The notes under the pieces: generated by a model
What the model was told of the DNA's origin: nothing
The model's database searches: none
The model's input: only the letters and a program-made list of their open reading frames with translations
Assembly: GCA_029547025.1 (NCBI GenBank)
Contig: JAKPQA010000226.1
Location: forward strand, 26,586 to 90,585
Length of the DNA: 64,000 nt
Direction: 5' to 3'
Origin: Armatimonadota bacterium
GTDB lineage: Bacteria > Armatimonadota > Zipacnadia > UBA1398 > JAKPQA01
Position numbers and translations under genes: made by a program
Shown here: in pieces, positions 14,256-23,400 of the stretch
How the letters are laid out: each line of letters opens with the position of its first letter
How positions within the stretch are numbered: the stretch's first letter is position 1

Positions 14256-15278
14256 TTACCGCCAACGCCCTTCTTTGGGGGGCCTCCGCACACCCAGCAT
14301 GTCGACGAATGTCTCGATACGGATCCGGGTCGCGCCATCGACGGGCCCCGGCCGGTCGCCCTCGAGGGTGAGGATGGGCACCGGCAGGTGCCGTCGTAAC
14401 AGCAGGTCGGCGATCTGGCGGAAGCAGAAACTCTGAACATAATGAATAAGTCCATCGATACGGCGCACCGCGATCTGAGCGCCGATGTCATCCAGTCGAG
14501 GACCTACCCCGTAGGGGTACGTGTACTGGAGGTACTGGTCTACCAGATCCCTGGCGGGGAAGGGCATGGCGAACTGGCGGGGTACCTCCGCAAAGACGAC
14601 GCGGGCGCCCGCCTCCTCGACGCAGTCGTGCAGGCCATCGATCATGGGTGGCACGCCGAGCAGCCCGATGCGGGGGCCGGCGTCGCCGGCTGGATCCTCC
14701 GTGTGCCGCAAGATACCCAGCAGCCGCTCCGCGAACTGCTCTGGGTTGCCGCACATATCGGAGCACGAGACCAGTGCCCAGTGGGCTTCGGCTCCACCGA
14801 TGCGGCCTTCGGCCCAGGCGACCCGGTCGATCTCCAGCGCCATGCTTCGGACGGCATCGAGGCGGTTCTTGGCGGCCCGCACGGCATCGGGCGTGGCCCC
14901 GCAATAGGCGGCCAGTGCGGAGATCTCTCGCGCCAGCGGCTCGGGTTGCCGGCTCTGCGGGAATGCGAAGGGGATCGTCTCGATGCCATCATCGCGCAGC
15001 ACTTCGCCGAGGGCGTGAGTTTGCGAGCAGTCACCCTCGGAGACGATGATCACCCGCCGGAGCCCCGACCGGTGTGCGGCGGTGTAGATGCCTTTGATCC
15101 AGGCGCAGCAGTTGCGGGGGAACCCTTGCGACTCGGCCCACTCCACCCATGCGAGCGGGTCCTCCGAGCCCACGAAGACGTTGTTGAGGTCCACCGGGAT
15201 GCGGCCCGCGGCGTAGAGGACCTCACTGGGGACCGTGCTCGTGATGCCGATGCGCGGGTCGTCCGGTCCCGTTGTCAC
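14256..15278 (-). CDS. 2-hydroxyacyl-CoA dehydratase (HgdB/FldB-like) family Fe-S protein
   Basis: IGITSTVPSEVLYAAG, NCCAWIKG, GDCSQT, DGLIHYVQSFCFR, PILTLEGD..TRIETF; GTG 15278 lies just after the queE stop, so the track start at 15560 is an overextension. Confidence 0.85.
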   Translation of the reverse strand: MTTGPDDPRIGITSTVPSEVLYAAGRIPVDLNNVFVGSEDPLAWVEWAESQGFPRNCCAWIKGIYTAAHRSGLRRVIIVSEGDCSQTHALGEVLRDDGIETIPFAFPQSRQPEPLAREISALAAYCGATPDAVRAAKNRLDAVRSMALEIDRVAWAEGRIGGAEAHWALVSCSDMCGNPEQFAERLLGILRHTEDPAGDAGPRIGLLGVPPMIDGLHDCVEEAGARVVFAEVPRQFAMPFPARDLVDQYLQYTYPYGVGPRLDDIGAQIAVRRIDGLIHYVQSFCFRQIADLLLRRHLPVPILTLEGDRPGPVDGATRIRIETFVDMLGVRRPPKEGRWR

Positions 15279-15279
15279 G

Positions 15280-16077
15280 CTAGGCCAGGCCGAGGAACCG
15301 GTGGCACTGAGGGATGACCCGGACATCCCGCACCTCCCGGGCGGCCGCCTGCGCCAGGACCCAGAGCCGCTGGGGGTCGATGAGCAGCCCACCATCAGGG
15401 CCGGTCGCCGGTTGCAGGATGCACGGGATCGACGGATCGACCTCATTGACGATCGCGCAGCCCTGGAGCACTTCGCCCAGGGGGGTCTTCTGCACGACGA
15501 CCATCTTGACGAACACCTCGGCGGAGCAGGCCTCGCGGAGGCAGAGCAGGTGGTCGGCATCGCGCCAGGGCTCGCCGGTGGCGGACGGCAGTTTGATGTC
15601 CATGGCGATCCAGCTCACGACAGGTGCCAGGAGTCGCATGCCCTCGGGCAGCGTTCCGTTTGTTTCAAGATAGCAACTAAATCCTAGTGACCCGAGGTGA
15701 CCCACGAGCGGGCGCAGCGGGCCAGCGTGAAGTAGTGGCTCGCCCCCGGTCAGCGCGACGGAGTGGTGAGGGCCGGCGGCGGCCTCAGTCTCGCGCACCA
15801 GGTCGACCATGTTCGCGAGGCTGATGGGGTTGGGGTATACGCGTGGCTCGGAAGAGGGTCGGAGCACCGTGCAAGTCGCCAGGTCGGCCCGTCGGGAGCG
15901 GCGCGTGTCGCAGTACTCGCACATGAGGTTGCATCCGCAAAGGCGGACGAAGACCTGCCGGATGCCGACATATGGCCCCTCCCCCTGAATCCCGCTGAAG
16001 ATCTCGTCCACGGGCAGAGTGAAGGGGTCGCGTCGCGCGTCGGGTTCGGCTATGGACTCGAGCTCAGTGTCAGCCAT
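15280..16077 (-). CDS. queE: 7-carboxy-7-deazaguanine synthase (radical SAM)
   Basis: EIFSGIQGEG, FVRLCGCNLMCEYCDT, TGGEP, LETNG, VRVIPQCHR; adjacent to queD. Confidence 0.9.
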   Translation of the reverse strand: MADTELESIAEPDARRDPFTLPVDEIFSGIQGEGPYVGIRQVFVRLCGCNLMCEYCDTRRSRRADLATCTVLRPSSEPRVYPNPISLANMVDLVRETEAAAGPHHSVALTGGEPLLHAGPLRPLVGHLGSLGFSCYLETNGTLPEGMRLLAPVVSWIAMDIKLPSATGEPWRDADHLLCLREACSAEVFVKMVVVQKTPLGEVLQGCAIVNEVDPSIPCILQPATGPDGGLLIDPQRLWVLAQAAAREVRDVRVIPQCHRFLGLA

Positions 16078-16126
16078 ACGCCCCCTACCGCCATCGCCAT
16101 GGCGCTCCCCACGGCGGTGGAACCTC

Positions 16127-16516
16127 CTAGTTGCCGATGAACACCGCCACGGCTCCTGGGCTCTCCGAGACCTCGACACGCGCGAGCCGGACAGTTGACG
16201 GAACCGCGCCGTCCGCCGCCAGCTCGGAGGCGAGACGGGCGTGCACGGCTCGGGCGATGACCTCAGCCGTGGGGTTCGGCGCCAGCTCCGGCAGCGGAAG
16301 GTCGTTCAGCAGCTGGTGGTCCAGCTCGTCGAGGACGCGTTTGAGGCAGGCTCGAAGCGTCGCGAAGTCGACCAGCATGCCCAGGGAGTCGAGCTCGTCG
16401 CCAGCGACGACGGCGCGCACGAGGTAGGTGTGCCCATGCAACCGGGCGCACTTCCCCGAGTAGCCATCGACCCGATGGGCCGAGTGGAAGTGATCTTCGA
16501 CCGCCAGTTCGTACAT
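16127..16516 (-). CDS. queD: 6-carboxy-5,6,7,8-tetrahydropterin synthase
   Basis: FHSAH, GKCARLHGHTY, GMLVDF, LDHQLLND, NPTAE, VEVSES. Confidence 0.92.
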   Translation of the reverse strand: MYELAVEDHFHSAHRVDGYSGKCARLHGHTYLVRAVVAGDELDSLGMLVDFATLRACLKRVLDELDHQLLNDLPLPELAPNPTAEVIARAVHARLASELAADGAVPSTVRLARVEVSESPGAVAVFIGN

Positions 16517-16558
16517 AGCCTCCGGACGGAGCCGAAGCTCCCTTTCGCCCAGCATCGA

Positions 16559-16774
16559 TCAGCCCGTTGGGGCATCGTCTTTGGGGCCCTCTGTGGGCTC
16601 CGGCGGATCCTGCGAGCTCTTCTTGAACTCCTTGATGCCGGTGCCCAGTCCCCGCATGAGCTCCGGGATCTTGCGCGCGCCGAACAGCAGGACCACGAGA
16701 AGCAGGATGATCAGGAGTTCGCTCGAGCCCACGAAGCCGACGCCGAGGACGGAGTCGGTCAGGATGCGTAGCAT
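16559..16774 (-). CDS. tatA: Twin-arginine translocase TatA/TatE subunit
   Basis: ELLIILLLVVLLFGARKIPELMRGLGTGIKEFKK. Confidence 0.92.
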   Translation of the reverse strand: MLRILTDSVLGVGFVGSSELLIILLLVVLLFGARKIPELMRGLGTGIKEFKKSSQDPPEPTEGPKDDAPTG

Positions 16775-16802
16775 TGGGTTGCCTCCTTGGGCGAACGCCC
16801 CG

Positions 16803-17882
16803 TCAGCGCTCCGAGGGGCGAGCCGGTCTCTCGACAGCGCGGAGGAGCCGGTTGACCTGTTCCTCCGTGCCGACGAGGATCAGCTGGTCTCCTTCGGAGA
16901 TGATGGTGGAGCCGGATGGGTTGATGATCGGCTCGCCCCAGGGTTTGCCGACCCCGACGATGCGGACGTCGGTCTGCGTCTCCTCCTGCATCTCGGCAAG
17001 TGACATGCCAATGAGGTGGGAGCCTAAGGGAACCGTAACCTCATTCAGCCGGAAGGAGCCCGACCCCCCCGCGGCCATGACCTGCAGAAACGAGTGGACG
17101 CCCGGTCGAAGCAGGGCGGCCGCCATCTGAAAGCCTGCGGTCCGGTAGGGGCAGATCACCACATCAGCGCCGGCTCGGGCCAGAAGAGCCTCTGACGGCT
17201 CGTCGGTGGACCGTGCCACGACCCTCGCGTCGGGAGCCATCTCCTGAAGCGTGAGGGCGAGCATGAGGTTCTCGGCGTCGGTGTCCAGCGCGCACACCAC
17301 CCCTGCCGCTCGCTCGACACCGGCCTCAGAGAGGACCTCGGGAACGGTGGCGTCGCCGCATATGATGGTAACATCGGCCAGGTCGTCGGGCAAGTTGTCG
17401 GGCGGGTGCTCGTCGATGGCCACGCACGTGGCTCCTTGCTGGAGCGCCGAGCGAACTGCGGCCATTCCCATTCGACCGAAGCCGCACACCACGATGTGGT
17501 CTTTGAGCCTGGACAAGCGCCGCCGCAACCTCCGCGTCACGATGGCCCCGTGCAGGTGACCCTCGACGACGAATGATGTGATGGTGCCCAGCACTAGAGC
17601 GCCCACCACGACGCTGACGATGACCAGCACGATGGTGAACTCCTGCCCGACCGGATCCAGCGTTCGGACCTCGCCGAACCCGACGGTGGTCATCGTGATG
17701 ATCGTCATGTACAGGGAATCCAGAAAGGGCCAACCCTCGGCGCACATGTAACCGAAGGTACCGAAGGCCAGGACCAGCACGGCCAGGACCAATGGGCGCC
17801 AGAAGAGGGCGGAAACGCGGCCTCCGCCGGATCCGACATGCAGCCGGCGCGTGTGGCTCGCGAGCCCGCGACTCCGCGTCAC
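16803..17882 (-). CDS. Potassium channel with TrkA-N/TrkA-C (RCK) domains
   Basis: Two TMs around the filter TTVGFG; HIVVCGFGRMG Rossmann motif; TrkA-C IINPSGSTIISEGDQLILVG; start uncertain. Confidence 0.9.
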   Translation of the reverse strand: MTRSRGLASHTRRLHVGSGGGRVSALFWRPLVLAVLVLAFGTFGYMCAEGWPFLDSLYMTIITMTTVGFGEVRTLDPVGQEFTIVLVIVSVVVGALVLGTITSFVVEGHLHGAIVTRRLRRRLSRLKDHIVVCGFGRMGMAAVRSALQQGATCVAIDEHPPDNLPDDLADVTIICGDATVPEVLSEAGVERAAGVVCALDTDAENLMLALTLQEMAPDARVVARSTDEPSEALLARAGADVVICPYRTAGFQMAAALLRPGVHSFLQVMAAGGSGSFRLNEVTVPLGSHLIGMSLAEMQEETQTDVRIVGVGKPWGEPIINPSGSTIISEGDQLILVGTEEQVNRLLRAVERPARPSER

Positions 17883-17924
17883 GGTAGCTCACCCGCACAC
17901 CGGTGGGGGCCCACACCCATCGCT

Positions 17925-18692
17925 TCAGACGCTGCCCTGGGATGTCTCTGTGGTCTCGGTAGCGCTGTCAACCTCTCCCATGATGGCGTCCAGGGACTTG
18001 GTTGCCTGGCTGGGCTCCTCGGTCGTCATGCCGAGCTGCCGCGCGTATTCCTCATAGCGTTGCTCTGCCTCTTGGTCCATGGCATCGATGCTGATGTCGA
18101 CCATCTGGGCACCAACGCTCTCCTGCGCGATCTCGGTGCGCGCCTCGGCGCGGGCCAGGTCCTCGTCGATCTTCTGGGTCATTTGGTCGAGGACCTGGTT
18201 GTCGTCACCGACCTCGAAACTCATCATCAGACTCGCCATCTGCCGCTGCATCTCGGCGCGCTTGGCGCGGGAGATCTGGCGCATGGACTCCTGGATCTCC
18301 TGCTGGATCTTGCGCTCGTAAGACAGACGGGCGCGCTTCACCTGCTCCGAGTTTTGCTTGGCCTGGGCCAGTTGCTGCTCGGTCTCGGCCAGATCGAGCT
18401 TGGTGGTCTCGAGCTGCGAGATCAGCGACTTGGCAATCTCCTTGCGCGAGGGGCCGAGCTTGACCGCGGCCACGACCTGCTTCTCGAGGTCTGCGGCCTT
18501 CTGACGGAGGCGCTCGGCCTGCATCGCGAGCATCTTCTCAAGCTTCACCACCTCAGCGGTCTGGCGGTTGAACTCGGGGATTCGCGATCGCAGATCGTCG
18601 ATGTGCTGGCGGAGGATGAGCTCCGGGTCCTCGGCGCGGCGGACCAACCACCCAAACATGGCGCGCACGACCCTGGCGAGACGCTTGAACAT
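17925..18692 (-). CDS. pspA: PspA/IM30 (ESCRT-III-like) family protein
   Basis: MFKRLARVVRAMFG..AEDPELILRQ N-terminus followed by a long coiled coil. Confidence 0.88.
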   Translation of the reverse strand: MFKRLARVVRAMFGWLVRRAEDPELILRQHIDDLRSRIPEFNRQTAEVVKLEKMLAMQAERLRQKAADLEKQVVAAVKLGPSRKEIAKSLISQLETTKLDLAETEQQLAQAKQNSEQVKRARLSYERKIQQEIQESMRQISRAKRAEMQRQMASLMMSFEVGDDNQVLDQMTQKIDEDLARAEARTEIAQESVGAQMVDISIDAMDQEAEQRYEEYARQLGMTTEEPSQATKSLDAIMGEVDSATETTETSQGSV

Positions 18693-18838
18693 GCGTGTGC
18701 CTCCGTAATCGGGATGGGGCTAGACCGCTCGCGGCCGCGAGCCCCAGTCAGACGAGACGCCGACCCCACCGTCCAGTTTCGGATCGACCCCGGCCCGAGT
18801 CCGATGAAGTCGACGGTCCCGGTGGATCCAAAACCGCA

Positions 18839-19660
18839 CTAGCGGGAGGTGACGCTCTCGCGGACCCTCAGCACTGCCTCGAGCATCTCGGGCAGCTCCG
18901 CCAGCGCCACCATGTTTGGCCCGTCGCACAGGGCATGATCCGGATCATCATGAACTTCCAGGAAGAGGGCGTCGATTCCTACCGCCGTAGCCGCGCGGGA
19001 CAAATGCGCCACGAAGCGCCGGTCGCCGCCCGAGACGGTGCCGCCCGCGCTGGGGAGCTGCACGGAGTGGGTGGCGTCGAACACCACCGGGTACCCCAGC
19101 TCTCTCATGATCACCAGCCCGCGCATGTCGACGACCAGGTTTCCATAGCCGAAGACCGAGCCACGCTCGCACAGGAGAACGCCTCCCGTTCCTCCTGCTT
19201 CCACTTTGCGGGCGGCCTGGACCATGGTCTCGGGGCTCACGAACTGCCCTTTCTTCACATTGACGGGACGACCGGTGGCACCAGCGGCCACGAGCAGGTC
19301 GGTCTGTCGGCACAGGAATGCCGGGATCTGGAGGAGGTCGACGACGGCGCCGGCGGCCGTGGCTTCCGGTGGACTATGCACATCGGTAAGTGTTGGAACT
19401 CCACACTCGGTGCGGACCCGGGCCAACACCGATAGGCCCGCCTCGAGGCCCGGTCCGCGGTAGGAGTCGACTGAAGTTCGGTTCGCTTTGTCGTACGATG
19501 CTTTGAAAACGAACGGCATCGCCAGGCGCTGGGCGACCTCGCGCAGCGCGTCCGCCATCCGCAGGCAGTGATCGACGGACTCGATGACGCAGGGCCCCGC
19601 CAGGAGGGCGAGCGGGTGCCCGGGACCGATGGCGACGGGGCCGACCCGGACCGGGTTCAT
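18839..19660 (-). CDS. kdsA: 3-deoxy-D-manno-octulosonate 8-phosphate synthase
   Basis: [55 protein letters not shown]. Confidence 0.97.
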
Positions 19661-20418
19661 CGCCGCCCCTCCTCAGCCAGACGGCGGGCCATGAGCTCCC
19701 GGGCCCGCCGCAGGTCGCTCTCGGTGTCGACTCCGATGGATTCGTGCTGGGTGAGGCCGACCCAGATGCGATAGCCGTTCTCGAGGGCCCGGAGCTGCTC
19801 GAGCTGCTCGGCGCGCTGCAGGGGTGTCTGGGGGAGCGACGGGTAGCGCAGGAGGAAGTCACGTCGGTAGCCGTAGAGGCCCAGGTGCTTCCAGACGGGG
19901 CAGCGGTCCTCGGGAGACTCGGAACGCTGGTGCGGTATGGTGGCTCGGGAGAAATAGAGCGCATAGCCGCGCTGGTCGACGACCACTTTGACCGTGGACG
20001 GATCATGGAGCTCCTCGGGCGCAATGGGCGCGCGCAGAGTCGTCATCGCCAACTGGGCATCGGCGCCGAAGGGCTCGACGAGTTGCCGGATCATGTCGGC
20101 CTCGATGAAGGGCTCATCGCCCTGGATGTTGACGACCACATCCAAGTCGATGTCCGCAGCGACTTCGGCGATGCGGTCGGTGCCGGTGGGATGGTCGGGC
20201 CGCGTGAGCACCACCTCGCCTCCGTACGAACGCACCACGCGGGCGATTCGCTCGTCGTCCGTGGCCACGATGACCCGGTCGAGGACTCCGGTGGCGCAGG
20301 CGCCTTCCTGCACCCACTGAATCATGGGCTTCCCGCAGATATCGAGGAGGGCCTTGCCGGGGAGCCGGGTCGATGCGAAGCGGGCCGGGATGATGCCGGC
20401 AGCGGTGAGGGGAGCGAT
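19657..20418 (-). CDS. kdsB: 3-deoxy-manno-octulosonate cytidylyltransferase
   Basis: [53 protein letters not shown]; stop overlaps the kdsA ATG (ATGA); no canonical start near the homologous N-terminus (see findings). Confidence 0.93.
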
Positions 20419-20420
20419 GT

Positions 20421-23400
20421 CTATGCCTCCTTGCTGGCGATGCGGTCGCGATAGGCCCGCAATGCGGCAGCGGCTTTGGTTCGGGCAGCCGACCCGTCCG
20501 CCGCGTGCTCCTCCTCCTGGGTGACCACATACTCGGCCATGGCCGCGAAGAGGAGCCCGAGAGGCGGCGGATCGGACATTCCCTTCGAGCTCAACTCGTC
20601 CACAACCTGCAGCAGACGTCGCCAGTGGTCGAAGCACCGGAGCATGGCACGGGCGCGCTTGGCGGGGGTGCCGGCGTCGTCGAGGCCGGCCAGAGCCCCA
20701 TCCAGGCCATCGGTGAGGTTCCGGCGCTCCTCGTCGGAGAGCTCGTAGATCTTCCGGACGGCGCGCCCGATCAGTTCGGCGAAGCTGATCGATGGGCCCT
20801 CGGTGCTGGCCGAGATCTTCTCTTCGGAGTCATCTGCGGGGCCCGCCGAGGTGGTGTACGCGACGACCTGGCCCATCAGGTCGCGAACGGAACCGGCTTC
20901 GCCAGAAGCGGCCACGGGCACGATGTCCTCTCCGGACGTGTCTTCGTCGGCCGGCATCACCGAGGCGTAGGAGTCGAACCGGATCTCGAGCCCGCCGAAG
21001 GCACTGCTGAGACCCACGCGCTCGCGTGCGTCGGTGCTCTCGACGGCACGCGCGCAGGCCATCGTGGCGTCGCGGGAGCCCCGTACCAGGTCGGCCATGG
21101 CCGTCGAGAGCGCGGGTCCGCCCTCGACATGGACCGTGTGTTCGGCATCCATGTCCGCCGCCAGGACGCTGTAGCCACGAGAGCCGCGGATGATGTTGTC
21201 GAGAGAGAACACGGCGCTATCGGCCATCTCGCCAACGACTCGGAGCAGCTCATTGTCGCGGGCCCGGACGGGGGTCACAGGGCCGTGGCGCTTGGCACGG
21301 CCGAGGGTGATCTCTTCGGCATCCGGGCTCTCGGACGGAGCGAGCACGGATTCATCACGCGCCAACTCGGCCAGTGGCGACCCGCGCTTCTGGAGTGAGA
21401 CACCGAAGGCGGCGCCGGCTCGCTCTTCGCGTTCGCGGCGGTCCATTTCCCGCGCCGCGAGGCTCCGGGCACTGCGCTCGGACACCTCATGCACCAGGTC
21501 ACGCAGGAGCTGGTCGGTCTCGGGCCGGGCCGTGCGAGCCAGCTGGATTCGTGGGGTCTTGGGCGGGGCAGGTCCTTGCTTCGGGGCGGGTCCCTGCTTT
21601 GGGGTAGGCCGGGCCGCGGGGGTCGCCGCAGGCCGAGTCGGCGCGGTTCCGCGCCCCTTGGGTGGCGCGGCTGGCGCGGTCAGGAACGAGCGACGACGCA
21701 CCGGCGGCCGCTGCTTGCGCGCCATGGCAATCGCTGCGTAGACGGCTTCCCAGCGCTGCCCGAGTCCGTACTCGTCGGCCAGGAGGCCCCCGGATGGCCT
21801 CGCGGCGCGGCCGACCGCCGCGGACGGGGCCAGCGTCTCCGCGACGAGGACCGCTACCGGTAGGCGGGCGGGCGCGGGCAGGTCCGGTGCCGGGTACGTC
21901 CGTGCCACCTCAACGTCGGTCAATGGGGTGCCCAGAGCGGCGCGACAAGCTCGGGCTTCGGCTGGTGGCGCTAGCTCATCAGCCCGCAGGAGCGGGACCG
22001 GCCGCCGCAACACTACAGCGACAGGCGGCCGAGGGTAGAGGGCCGCGATCTCGGCCGCGGTGCGGGCCGCGCCGAGCTCGCGCGATGGGGATCGAGGGAC
22101 CGCCCCGAGCTTCCGAGCCAGACCCCGGACCGGGCCATTCGCCGCGAAGAACGCGGACCCGTCCACCGGCGCCTCGGCGTGGAGTAGCGGGATCCGCCGG
22201 CGCGTGACCACGTCGACATCAGCTGGCGGGTAGAGCAGCTCGGTCTCGCCTGCCAACAGCGGGTTCTGCCGGCCGTCGGCCCGGCCGCGCTGCTGCGGCG
22301 GCCGGTCGCCGCAGCTCCGACGCGCGAGCTCATCGGGAAGGAGCACCATAATGCGGCGCCGGACCACGAGATCGATGGGCGCCATGGGGTAGAGGCGGGC
22401 GACCTCATCGGCCACCGCGGGGCCGGCCACGGCGGCGGCAGACCCCGCGGCCTGCCGCACGGCGGAACTGGCCAGAGCCAGCTCCTCATCGAGGACCAAC
22501 TCGAGGGCCTCCCGCTCGACGGGGCCAGGCTCGGGGAGCTCCGAGGCGTCCGGCTCGGCCCGTTCGGCCCGCTCCGCGCCCGCCGCCCCCCCGAACAGCT
22601 GCGCCAATCGCGAGGCGGCTCCTTCGTCCTCGACAACGACCGGCGCCACGTCGAAGCCGAGCATCGACGCCGCCGCTCGACCGACCCACGCGGGAGACAC
22701 CCCCACACCGTCTTCGCTGCGGGCTTCCTCTGCCGACTCGGTGGCCCGCAGTGCGCTGGCAACGAGCTCGCCGAGACCCTTCTCGACCACAGGCTCCGCG
22801 CCGAACGGAGCCTCCTCGTCGTCGGCAGCGGGCGACGGTGTGGTGGCCCGCGGCTCTTCTGCGAGCGCCCCAACCGGCTGGGGTTCGGGCTCGGGCTCAG
22901 CGACGGGCAGGGGCTCGGGCTCCTGCTGGGCCACCTCGAGCGGCTGGGGTTCGGGCGAGGCGCCCGATGGCTTGGTCTCGCCCTGGGCCCTTGCTTCATC
23001 ATGCTCGAGAGGCTCGTCCAGGTCTTCGGCGCCCCGCGCGCGCTTCTGGGCGAGCTCGGTCCGGCGCTGACGCTGCAGCGCGGCGAGGAACGACTGGAGA
23101 TCGAACTCCTCGGATGCCCCGGAGGCCTCGGCAGGCTGAGACGGGGACGCCGCGGTCGAGTTCGAGTCCGCGAGCGCCTCCTGGTCCGCGTCCTCCTCCC
23201 ACGCGTCATCGCCCGGCTGGTCGACCAAGGGCACGTCACCGACCCGGGGAACGTGGCGCGGAACCGGCTTTGGAGCTGGGGAAAGCACGACGCCGGAGGG
23301 GCATGCGATGCGCGGCCCAATGTTCGGCCGCACGCTGGCCAGGGCATCGAGCAGGGCAACAGCTGAGGGGTATCGCTCTTCGGGGCGGAGCGAGAGGCAG

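Follow-up and report, generated by a model that had tools for sequence, protein, structure and literature searches.

An HGD-D-family iron-sulfur protein as a candidate preQ0 reductase in anaerobic bacteria that lack QueF

Introduction

In a 64,000-nucleotide stretch of the genome of an Armatimonadota bacterium (GenBank assembly GCA_029547025.1, contig JAKPQA010000226.1, positions 26,586 to 90,585 of the forward strand; the whole of this stretch is called the window here), the queuosine genes queD and queE are followed directly by a gene for an iron-sulfur protein of the 2-hydroxyacyl-CoA dehydratase (HGD-D) family. What would such a protein, which we call P0001, do beside two genes of queuosine synthesis? 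The route to queuosine is treated as fully solved, with FolE, QueD, QueE, QueC, QueF, Tgt, QueA and QueG or QueH as its enzymes. We suggest, with a probability of about 0.7, that P0001 is an activase-dependent [4Fe-4S] preQ0 reductase that stands in for QueF in many anaerobic bacteria without QueF. Together with an archerase-type activase, its family would probably represent a second, evolutionarily unrelated nitrile reductase, which would close an unrecognized hole in the queuosine pathway in anaerobes of at least eight phyla (Armatimonadota-like bacteria, Chloroflexota, Thermodesulfobacteriota, Desulfuromonadales, Planctomycetota, Bacillota, Cloacimonadota and Spirochaetota). A full-text literature search found nothing that links queuosine, QueF or preQ0 to the HGD-D, BCR or DCCP families.

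Results

P0001 is a member of the HGD-D superfamily

The gene for P0001 (14256..15278, minus strand) starts with GTG and encodes 340 amino acids. The protein matches PF06050 with 106.3 bits (cut-off 28.4), and the match spans positions 2-342 of the 342 in the profile. The genes queD, queE and the HGD-D gene lie head to tail, all on the minus strand, and the last two are tightly coupled: the queE stop codon (TAG, 15282..15280) is separated by a single base (c, 15279) from the GTG at 15278. This is the arrangement that a first-pass annotation of the window had described. The family is a tight orthologous group of proteins of about 325-340 amino acids, which are 40-58% identical across phyla and form 121 clusters at 50% identity (E <= 1e-30). 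When the window's genome was searched with P0001 by tblastn, a second HGD-D copy was not found, in agreement with the earlier statement that the window has no partner subunit, and the other loci likewise have one HGD-D gene.

Three cysteines had been proposed as cluster ligands on the basis of the motifs NCC, GDC and SFC. They are C58 (the second cysteine of NCC), C84 and C285, and all three are invariant in 108 family members and in 68 other sequences. They also align with cysteines of DCCP. The remaining cysteines of P0001 are conserved in at most 54% of the members, leaving three conserved cysteine columns, and about 55 further positions are at least 95% conserved among the 108 sequences. 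An AlphaFold2 model of P0001 (pLDDT 93.5, pTM 0.91) was compared with known structures by Foldseek. The top 20 matches are all HadB/C, DCCP, BzdN/O or MbdO/N, with TM scores of 0.63-0.77 at about 20% identity, and include HadC (3o3n_B, TM 0.75), which ranks as the best structural match, DCCP (6eno, TM 0.72), MbdN (9g87_B, TM 0.76) and 8s02_B. By sequence, the nearest solved structure is that of DCCP (E = 1e-14), followed by HadC and BzdN (E = 5.5e-5). There is no match to the QueF profile PF14489 in P0001, and its fold is unrelated to that of QueF.

By profile, fold, cysteine ligands and partner ATPase, P0001 is a member of the HGD-D superfamily. Its score against the NCBIfam model double_cubane (NF040772) is 30.2 bits, far under the cut-off of 350. 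Because this DCCP equivalog model fails and three rather than six cysteines are conserved, sequence comparison places P0001 in a separate single-subunit branch of archerase-dependent iron-sulfur enzymes. The clusters of HadBC are held by three cysteines and have a free iron (PMC7317905), and by analogy the cofactor of P0001 is likely to be a three-cysteine [4Fe-4S] cluster with one free iron.

The family and QueF have complementary distributions

The window's genome encodes most of the pathway. It has queC (contig C27, 18917-19546; 227-amino-acid open reading frame, 216.5 bits), queD and queE, a FolE2-like gene, tgt (474.8 bits), queA (433.6 bits) and queH (contig C170, 183.7 bits). The HGD-D gene had been thought to occupy the place of queC; with a normal queC in the same genome this idea falls, and a replacement of queC was rejected. 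QueF was not found in this 96%-complete assembly, either with PF14489, which gave no match, or with six QueF queries, five of them from the same phylum (best E = 0.36). QueF is the step that is missing in carriers of the family, an option that the first-pass annotation had not considered.

The carrier set comprises 50 genomes of about eight phyla, i.e., the window's own and 49 named genomes. QueF (PF14489) is above its cut-off in 0/50 carriers, and the same search is positive in 6 of 14 control genomes. The later steps are present in most carriers, with QueA in 46/50, QueH in 42/50 and QueG in four of the eight without QueH. QueG is the enzyme present in the two isolates whose que operons are tightest (HGD-D-activase-queCDE). 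The QueH match of the window's genome (C170:32061-32573, a domain of about 175 amino acids) lies in a 475-amino-acid frame, and QueH frames of 429 and 436 amino acids occur in two other carriers (G008 and G043); these long frames may be fusions or read-through of an upstream open reading frame.

Two larger samples were analyzed. For the window's phylum, the sample comprises 301 genomes, of which 49 have the family and 146 have QueF; none of the 49 carriers has QueF, as against 146 of the 252 non-carriers (Fisher p = 1e-16). Among 291 genomes of Clostridia, the family is found in 20, QueF in 27 and QueC in 32. QueC is present in 18/20 carriers and in 14/271 non-carriers (Fisher p = 4e-18). All 32 QueC-positive genomes are accounted for, 17 by the family, 14 by QueF and one by both (Fisher p = 3e-8). 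Since each QueC-positive clostridial genome has the family, QueF or both, one of the two is present wherever preQ0 is made.

A probable activase partner is encoded elsewhere in the genome

The first-pass annotation had reported that no activase accompanies the HGD-D gene. This is true for the window and for its contig, where a BcrAD_BadFG activase was not found, and it does not extend to the rest of the genome. An orphan activase of the HgdC type is encoded on another contig (C115:59789-60580, 208 bits), carries the cluster-cysteine motifs DKCAAGTG and CTVFAE, and has no HGD-D gene beside it. In the phylum sample, 48/49 carriers have an orthologue of this activase (E <= 1e-45), as against about 20/252 non-carriers (Fisher p = 3e-38). 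In Clostridia, an activase gene adjoins the HGD-D gene, immediately downstream, at 19/19 loci, and the same is seen at 7/57 other loci. Furthermore, the HGD-D domain is naturally fused to a BcrAD_BadFG activase in seven of the ten long family members that were tested.

Some family members, P0168 (968 amino acids) and P0171 (826 amino acids) among them, have N-terminal extensions of 160-350 amino acids without a Pfam match, placed ahead of the HGD-D and activase domains. The window's genome also contains a 1428-amino-acid frame with two tandem BcrAD_BadFG domains (C180:317-2044), a separate, fused archerase system; this tandem architecture recurs in frames of 1400-1620 amino acids in many genomes of the phylum. 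On the metagenome contig of P0004, the closest relative from outside the genus, the queD-queE-HGD-D triplet is followed by heterodisulfide-reductase-like genes with Fer4, CCG, Pyr_redox/Fer4 and FlpD/MvhD domains (contig L150, 7215-12990). This set may be a local supply of low-potential electrons, or its position may be a coincidence.

The HGD-D gene clusters with genes for preQ0 synthesis

In the window's phylum, queE is directly upstream of the HGD-D gene at 43 of 47 loci, and queD is there too at 18 of these. On two metagenome contigs, queE is again directly upstream of the orthologue, and the closest metagenomic relative has the same queD-queE-HGD-D triplet. Given the 43 phylum loci and the two metagenome contigs, the arrangement is not due to chance.

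In Clostridia and Halanaerobia, 15 loci are organized as operons of two types. In one, the order is HGD-D-activase-queD-queE-(folE)-queC, and in the other it is HGD-D-activase-queC-queD-queE(-folE2). These operons cover the steps from GTP to preQ0 together with the HGD-D/activase pair, and queF is in none of the 15. CoA-transferase or acyl-CoA metabolism genes do not accompany the HGD-D gene, either in the window, as had been noted earlier, or at the loci elsewhere; in the window the neighbors are tatA, queD, queE and an LptD-like gene.

The earlier proposal that P0001 is an uncharacterized player in 7-deazaguanine (queuosine) metabolism is upheld by the synteny with queE and queD, by the clostridial operons with queC, queD, queE and folE, and by the leader described below.

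A preQ1-aptamer-like leader at clostridial loci

The motif GACAGuucguaaccaucCUGUCuauaaacaaaacuagg, with terminator-like hairpins behind it, stands ahead of the first gene at 13 of the 21 Firmicute loci that were inspected. The motif resembles a variant of the preQ1-I aptamer, with an invariant GACAG/CUGUC stem and, ahead of the A-rich tail, an insertion of 4 nt. Copies are located at L125:3053-3099 and at the loci L029, L054, L124, L126-L132, L137 and L140. These 13 are the only ones in 1.46 Mb of loci, and all are in sense orientation, 130-340 nt upstream of an HGD-D gene. At two loci it is ahead of the HGD-D and activase genes only. The Rfam family RF00522 (PreQ1, preQ1-I-like) matches the motif over its full length with 25 bits (E = 0.0026 in a 211-nt search). 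An Rfam riboswitch was not found at the gathering threshold, nor at E <= 0.1 over 65 kb, and a motif scan found no copy in the window's genome or in the loci of its phylum. At 25 bits, an aptamer variant of this kind would be missed by standard annotation.

Discussion

A proposed two-protein preQ0 reductase

The simplest reading that covers all the data would be a non-orthologous replacement of QueF. P0001 would form the catalytic part of a reductase, made of two proteins and sensitive to oxygen, which would convert preQ0 (7-cyano-7-deazaguanine) to preQ1 (7-aminomethyl-7-deazaguanine). The preQ1 would then be inserted into tRNA by Tgt, and QueA and QueH would complete queuosine. We picture a protein of about 330 amino acids, probably a homodimer, with one [4Fe-4S] cluster that would be bound by the three invariant cysteines and would keep one iron free. 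Its partner would be an archerase activase of the HgdC/BcrA type, encoded on contig C115 in this genome, which would be reduced by ferredoxin or flavodoxin and whose hydrolysis of ATP would drive low-potential electrons into the [4Fe-4S] cluster. The nitrile of preQ0 would bind to the free iron or close to it, and its reduction would pass through the imine to the primary amine, with one electron and one proton added in each of four steps. By analogy with related enzymes, nitrile-reduction chemistry is plausible but unproven for P0001.

The predicted reaction and the position in the pathway are those of QueF (EC 1.7.1.13, PF14489), and the two are phyletically complementary. In operons of the preQ1-riboswitch type, the HGD-D gene takes the place that belongs to queF in the queCDEF operon of B. 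subtilis. The enzymes themselves are different. QueF is a T-fold protein that forms a thioimide on a catalytic cysteine and uses 2 NADPH, whereas P0001 is an iron-sulfur protein with the HGD-D fold that would depend on an activase to hydrolyse ATP and is presumably sensitive to oxygen. QueF counts as the sole nitrile reductase in biology, and its catalysis has been termed "a biologically unique reaction" (PMC7317782).

Within its own superfamily, P0001 shares its fold with DCCP of Carboxydothermus hydrogenoformans (6eno, 7yyl), which works with the ATPase DCCP-R, and both systems have one type of catalytic subunit and an archerase-type ATPase. Together with its ATPase, DCCP uses ATP to reduce small unsaturated compounds, acetylene among them, and is inhibited by cyanide; its physiological substrate is not known (PMC7317905). 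It differs in having an [8Fe-9S] cluster bound by six cysteines, whereas the P0001 family has three invariant cysteines and is about 90 amino acids shorter. The 2-hydroxyacyl-CoA dehydratases HgdAB, HadBC and FldBC, with the activases HgdC and HadI, have PF06050 in common with P0001, for which their three-cysteine [4Fe-4S] cluster with a free iron and their dependence on an activase of the HgdC type are likewise predicted. Unlike P0001, with its one type of subunit and a predicted net four-electron reduction, the dehydratases are alpha/beta heterodimers that act on CoA thioesters and recycle one electron. The class I benzoyl-CoA reductases (BcrABCD, BzdNOPQ and MbdONPQ) share the fold of the catalytic subunit and use low-potential electrons with stoichiometric ATP coupling, as is predicted for P0001. 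However, they have four subunits and act on aromatic CoA esters, and the sequence similarity is marginal.

Evidence that weighs against a replacement of QueF

Several points count against the proposed preQ0 reductase. Its support is wholly comparative, and we know of no four-electron nitrile reduction in the HGD-D superfamily. The distribution counts are not phylogenetically independent, as the carriers are grouped by entire taxonomic families within the phylum, and in 106 of the phylum genomes sampled, QueF and the P0001 family are both absent. One clostridial genome (G501, loci L136 and L142), the sole overlap among the 32 QueC-positive genomes, has an HGD-D-activase-queC-queD-queE operon and, on another contig, a divergent QueF-like gene (67 bits, 154-amino-acid frame). 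Between the activase on contig C115 and those that adjoin orthologues elsewhere, identity is no more than 28-34%, and the pairing was judged by co-occurrence instead. The leader motif, with its 25 bits, stays below the Rfam gathering score of 39, and its GACAG/CUGUC stem never varies, so that there is no support from covariation. At residues 165 and 230, P0001 and its closest relative, P0003 (83% identical), have Ala/Ala, where about 97% of the family has Asn.

Gene linkage is also uneven. In a first sample of 57 named genome loci, queD or queE is nearby in only two, and at most loci of Dehalococcoidia, Thermodesulfobacteriota, Anaerolineales and Phycisphaerae the HGD-D gene is beside no que gene. 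This sample was dominated by Dehalococcoidia and other unlinked lineages. The impression of no linkage was reversed because the window's phylum and the Clostridia were then sampled; the association with que genes that the first-pass annotation expected to find around homologues is thus scarce in the first sample and pronounced in the phylum loci and the clostridial operons.

Other explanations

Reduction at the level of tRNA, help for QueE or another tailoring reaction, and an unrelated anaerobe enzyme are, even when taken jointly, unlikely to explain the data. Bacterial Tgt accepts preQ0, and it could insert preQ0 into tRNA, with the HGD-D/activase pair then reducing preQ0-tRNA to preQ1-tRNA on the polymer. 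Distribution and clustering show that the step from nitrile to amine is missing and say nothing of the level at which it takes place. Still, the protein is small (about 330 amino acids) with no recognizable RNA-binding domain, its relatives work on small molecules or CoA esters, and a preQ1-type aptamer on the clostridial operon fits a feedback signal by the free base, though preQ1-I aptamers also bind preQ0. We regard reduction on tRNA as improbable. The pair could instead be dedicated to QueE, supplying it with low-potential electrons or repairing it, or it could tailor another 7-deazaguanine, with something else performing the QueF step. It is true that in the window's phylum the gene is tied to queE rather than queC (43/47 loci) and that the QueE of this lineage is divergent, scoring under all NCBIfam QueE cut-offs. 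But such a role would leave the near-perfect exclusion of QueF and the partition of the 32 QueC-positive Clostridia unexplained; QueE in QueF-bearing relatives runs on ordinary flavodoxin systems, and the carriers, which retain tgt, queA and queH, need preQ1. A helper or tailoring role for P0001 is likewise improbable.

The first-pass annotation had suggested, as one example, a third epoxyqueuosine reductase in place of QueG or QueH, and had predicted an anti-correlation with queG and queH. The deoxygenation of an epoxide is within the chemical reach of low-potential iron-sulfur enzymes, and the gene is linked to que genes. Carriers, however, routinely have queG or queH: one or the other is present in 46/50, among them the window's genome and the two isolates whose operons read HGD-D-activase-queCDE, and the operons encode free-base steps rather than tRNA-level ones. 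A third epoxyqueuosine reductase was rejected on the grounds of this co-occurrence, and we give it hardly any credence. It could also be argued that the family is a housekeeping iron-sulfur enzyme of anaerobes, acting for example on a CoA ester, and that the que linkage and the exclusion of QueF are by-products of phylogeny and lifestyle. In its favor, 55 of the first 57 loci have no que linkage, the neighbors in Dehalococcoidia are genes for GAPDH, enolase and an MBL-fold hydrolase, and all carriers are from anaerobic lineages. Against this, three or more distant lineages acquired a que linkage, with differing gene orders, the preQ1-like leader sits on the HGD-D and activase genes alone in two genomes, QueC is strongly enriched in clostridial carriers (18/20, as against 14/271 of the non-carriers), and CoA-transferase or acyl-CoA genes are not found alongside. 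Such an unrelated role is very improbable.

Implications

If P0001 is a preQ0 reductase, then genomes that carry it are misread as incomplete or dependent on salvage, though they probably make queuosine de novo; the genome-based classing of organisms as "Q makers" or "Q users" depends on whether QueF is found (PMC11130926). An iron-sulfur nitrile reductase unrelated to QueF would be new enzymology and a possible lead for biocatalysis. It would also add a new class of reaction to the HgdAB/BCR/DCCP superfamily, and would provide a physiological substrate for the large single-subunit branch of archerase-dependent iron-sulfur enzymes.

Other features of the locus

The queE-like radical SAM gene (7-carboxy-7-deazaguanine synthase; 15280..16077, minus strand) encodes about 265 amino acids and matches the Radical_SAM profile with 43.6 bits. 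Its frame is open from 16179 to 15280, with a GTG at 16179, and translation probably begins at an in-frame ATG (16077) that lies behind a GGGGG run. Its best NCBIfam matches are five QueE models with 48-63 bits (maximum 63.5), all below their cut-offs of 200-300, and by tblastn it is the only QueE-like gene of the genome. Family-based naming at NCBI would probably leave the divergent QueE of this lineage without a name. The queD gene (6-carboxytetrahydropterin synthase; 16127..16555, minus strand) encodes 142 amino acids and matches PF01242 with 115.5 bits and the QueD model TIGR03367 with 95.8 bits (cut-off 89.25). It had been identified correctly at first pass, with a start at 16516; this position is an internal in-frame ATG of the 16555..16127 reading frame and represents an alternative start.

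The stop codon of tatA lies 3 nt ahead of the queD start. Upstream of tatA, on the same strand, are genes for a TrkA-type K+ channel, pspA, kdsA and kdsB, in a run that extends over 16559-20637. The que genes may here belong to a long transcription unit of envelope genes, without a leader of their own. As regards P0001 itself, the rare other exceptions at residues 165 and 230 in the family also change together (A/D, C/S and L/C), which suggests that the two residues are paired.

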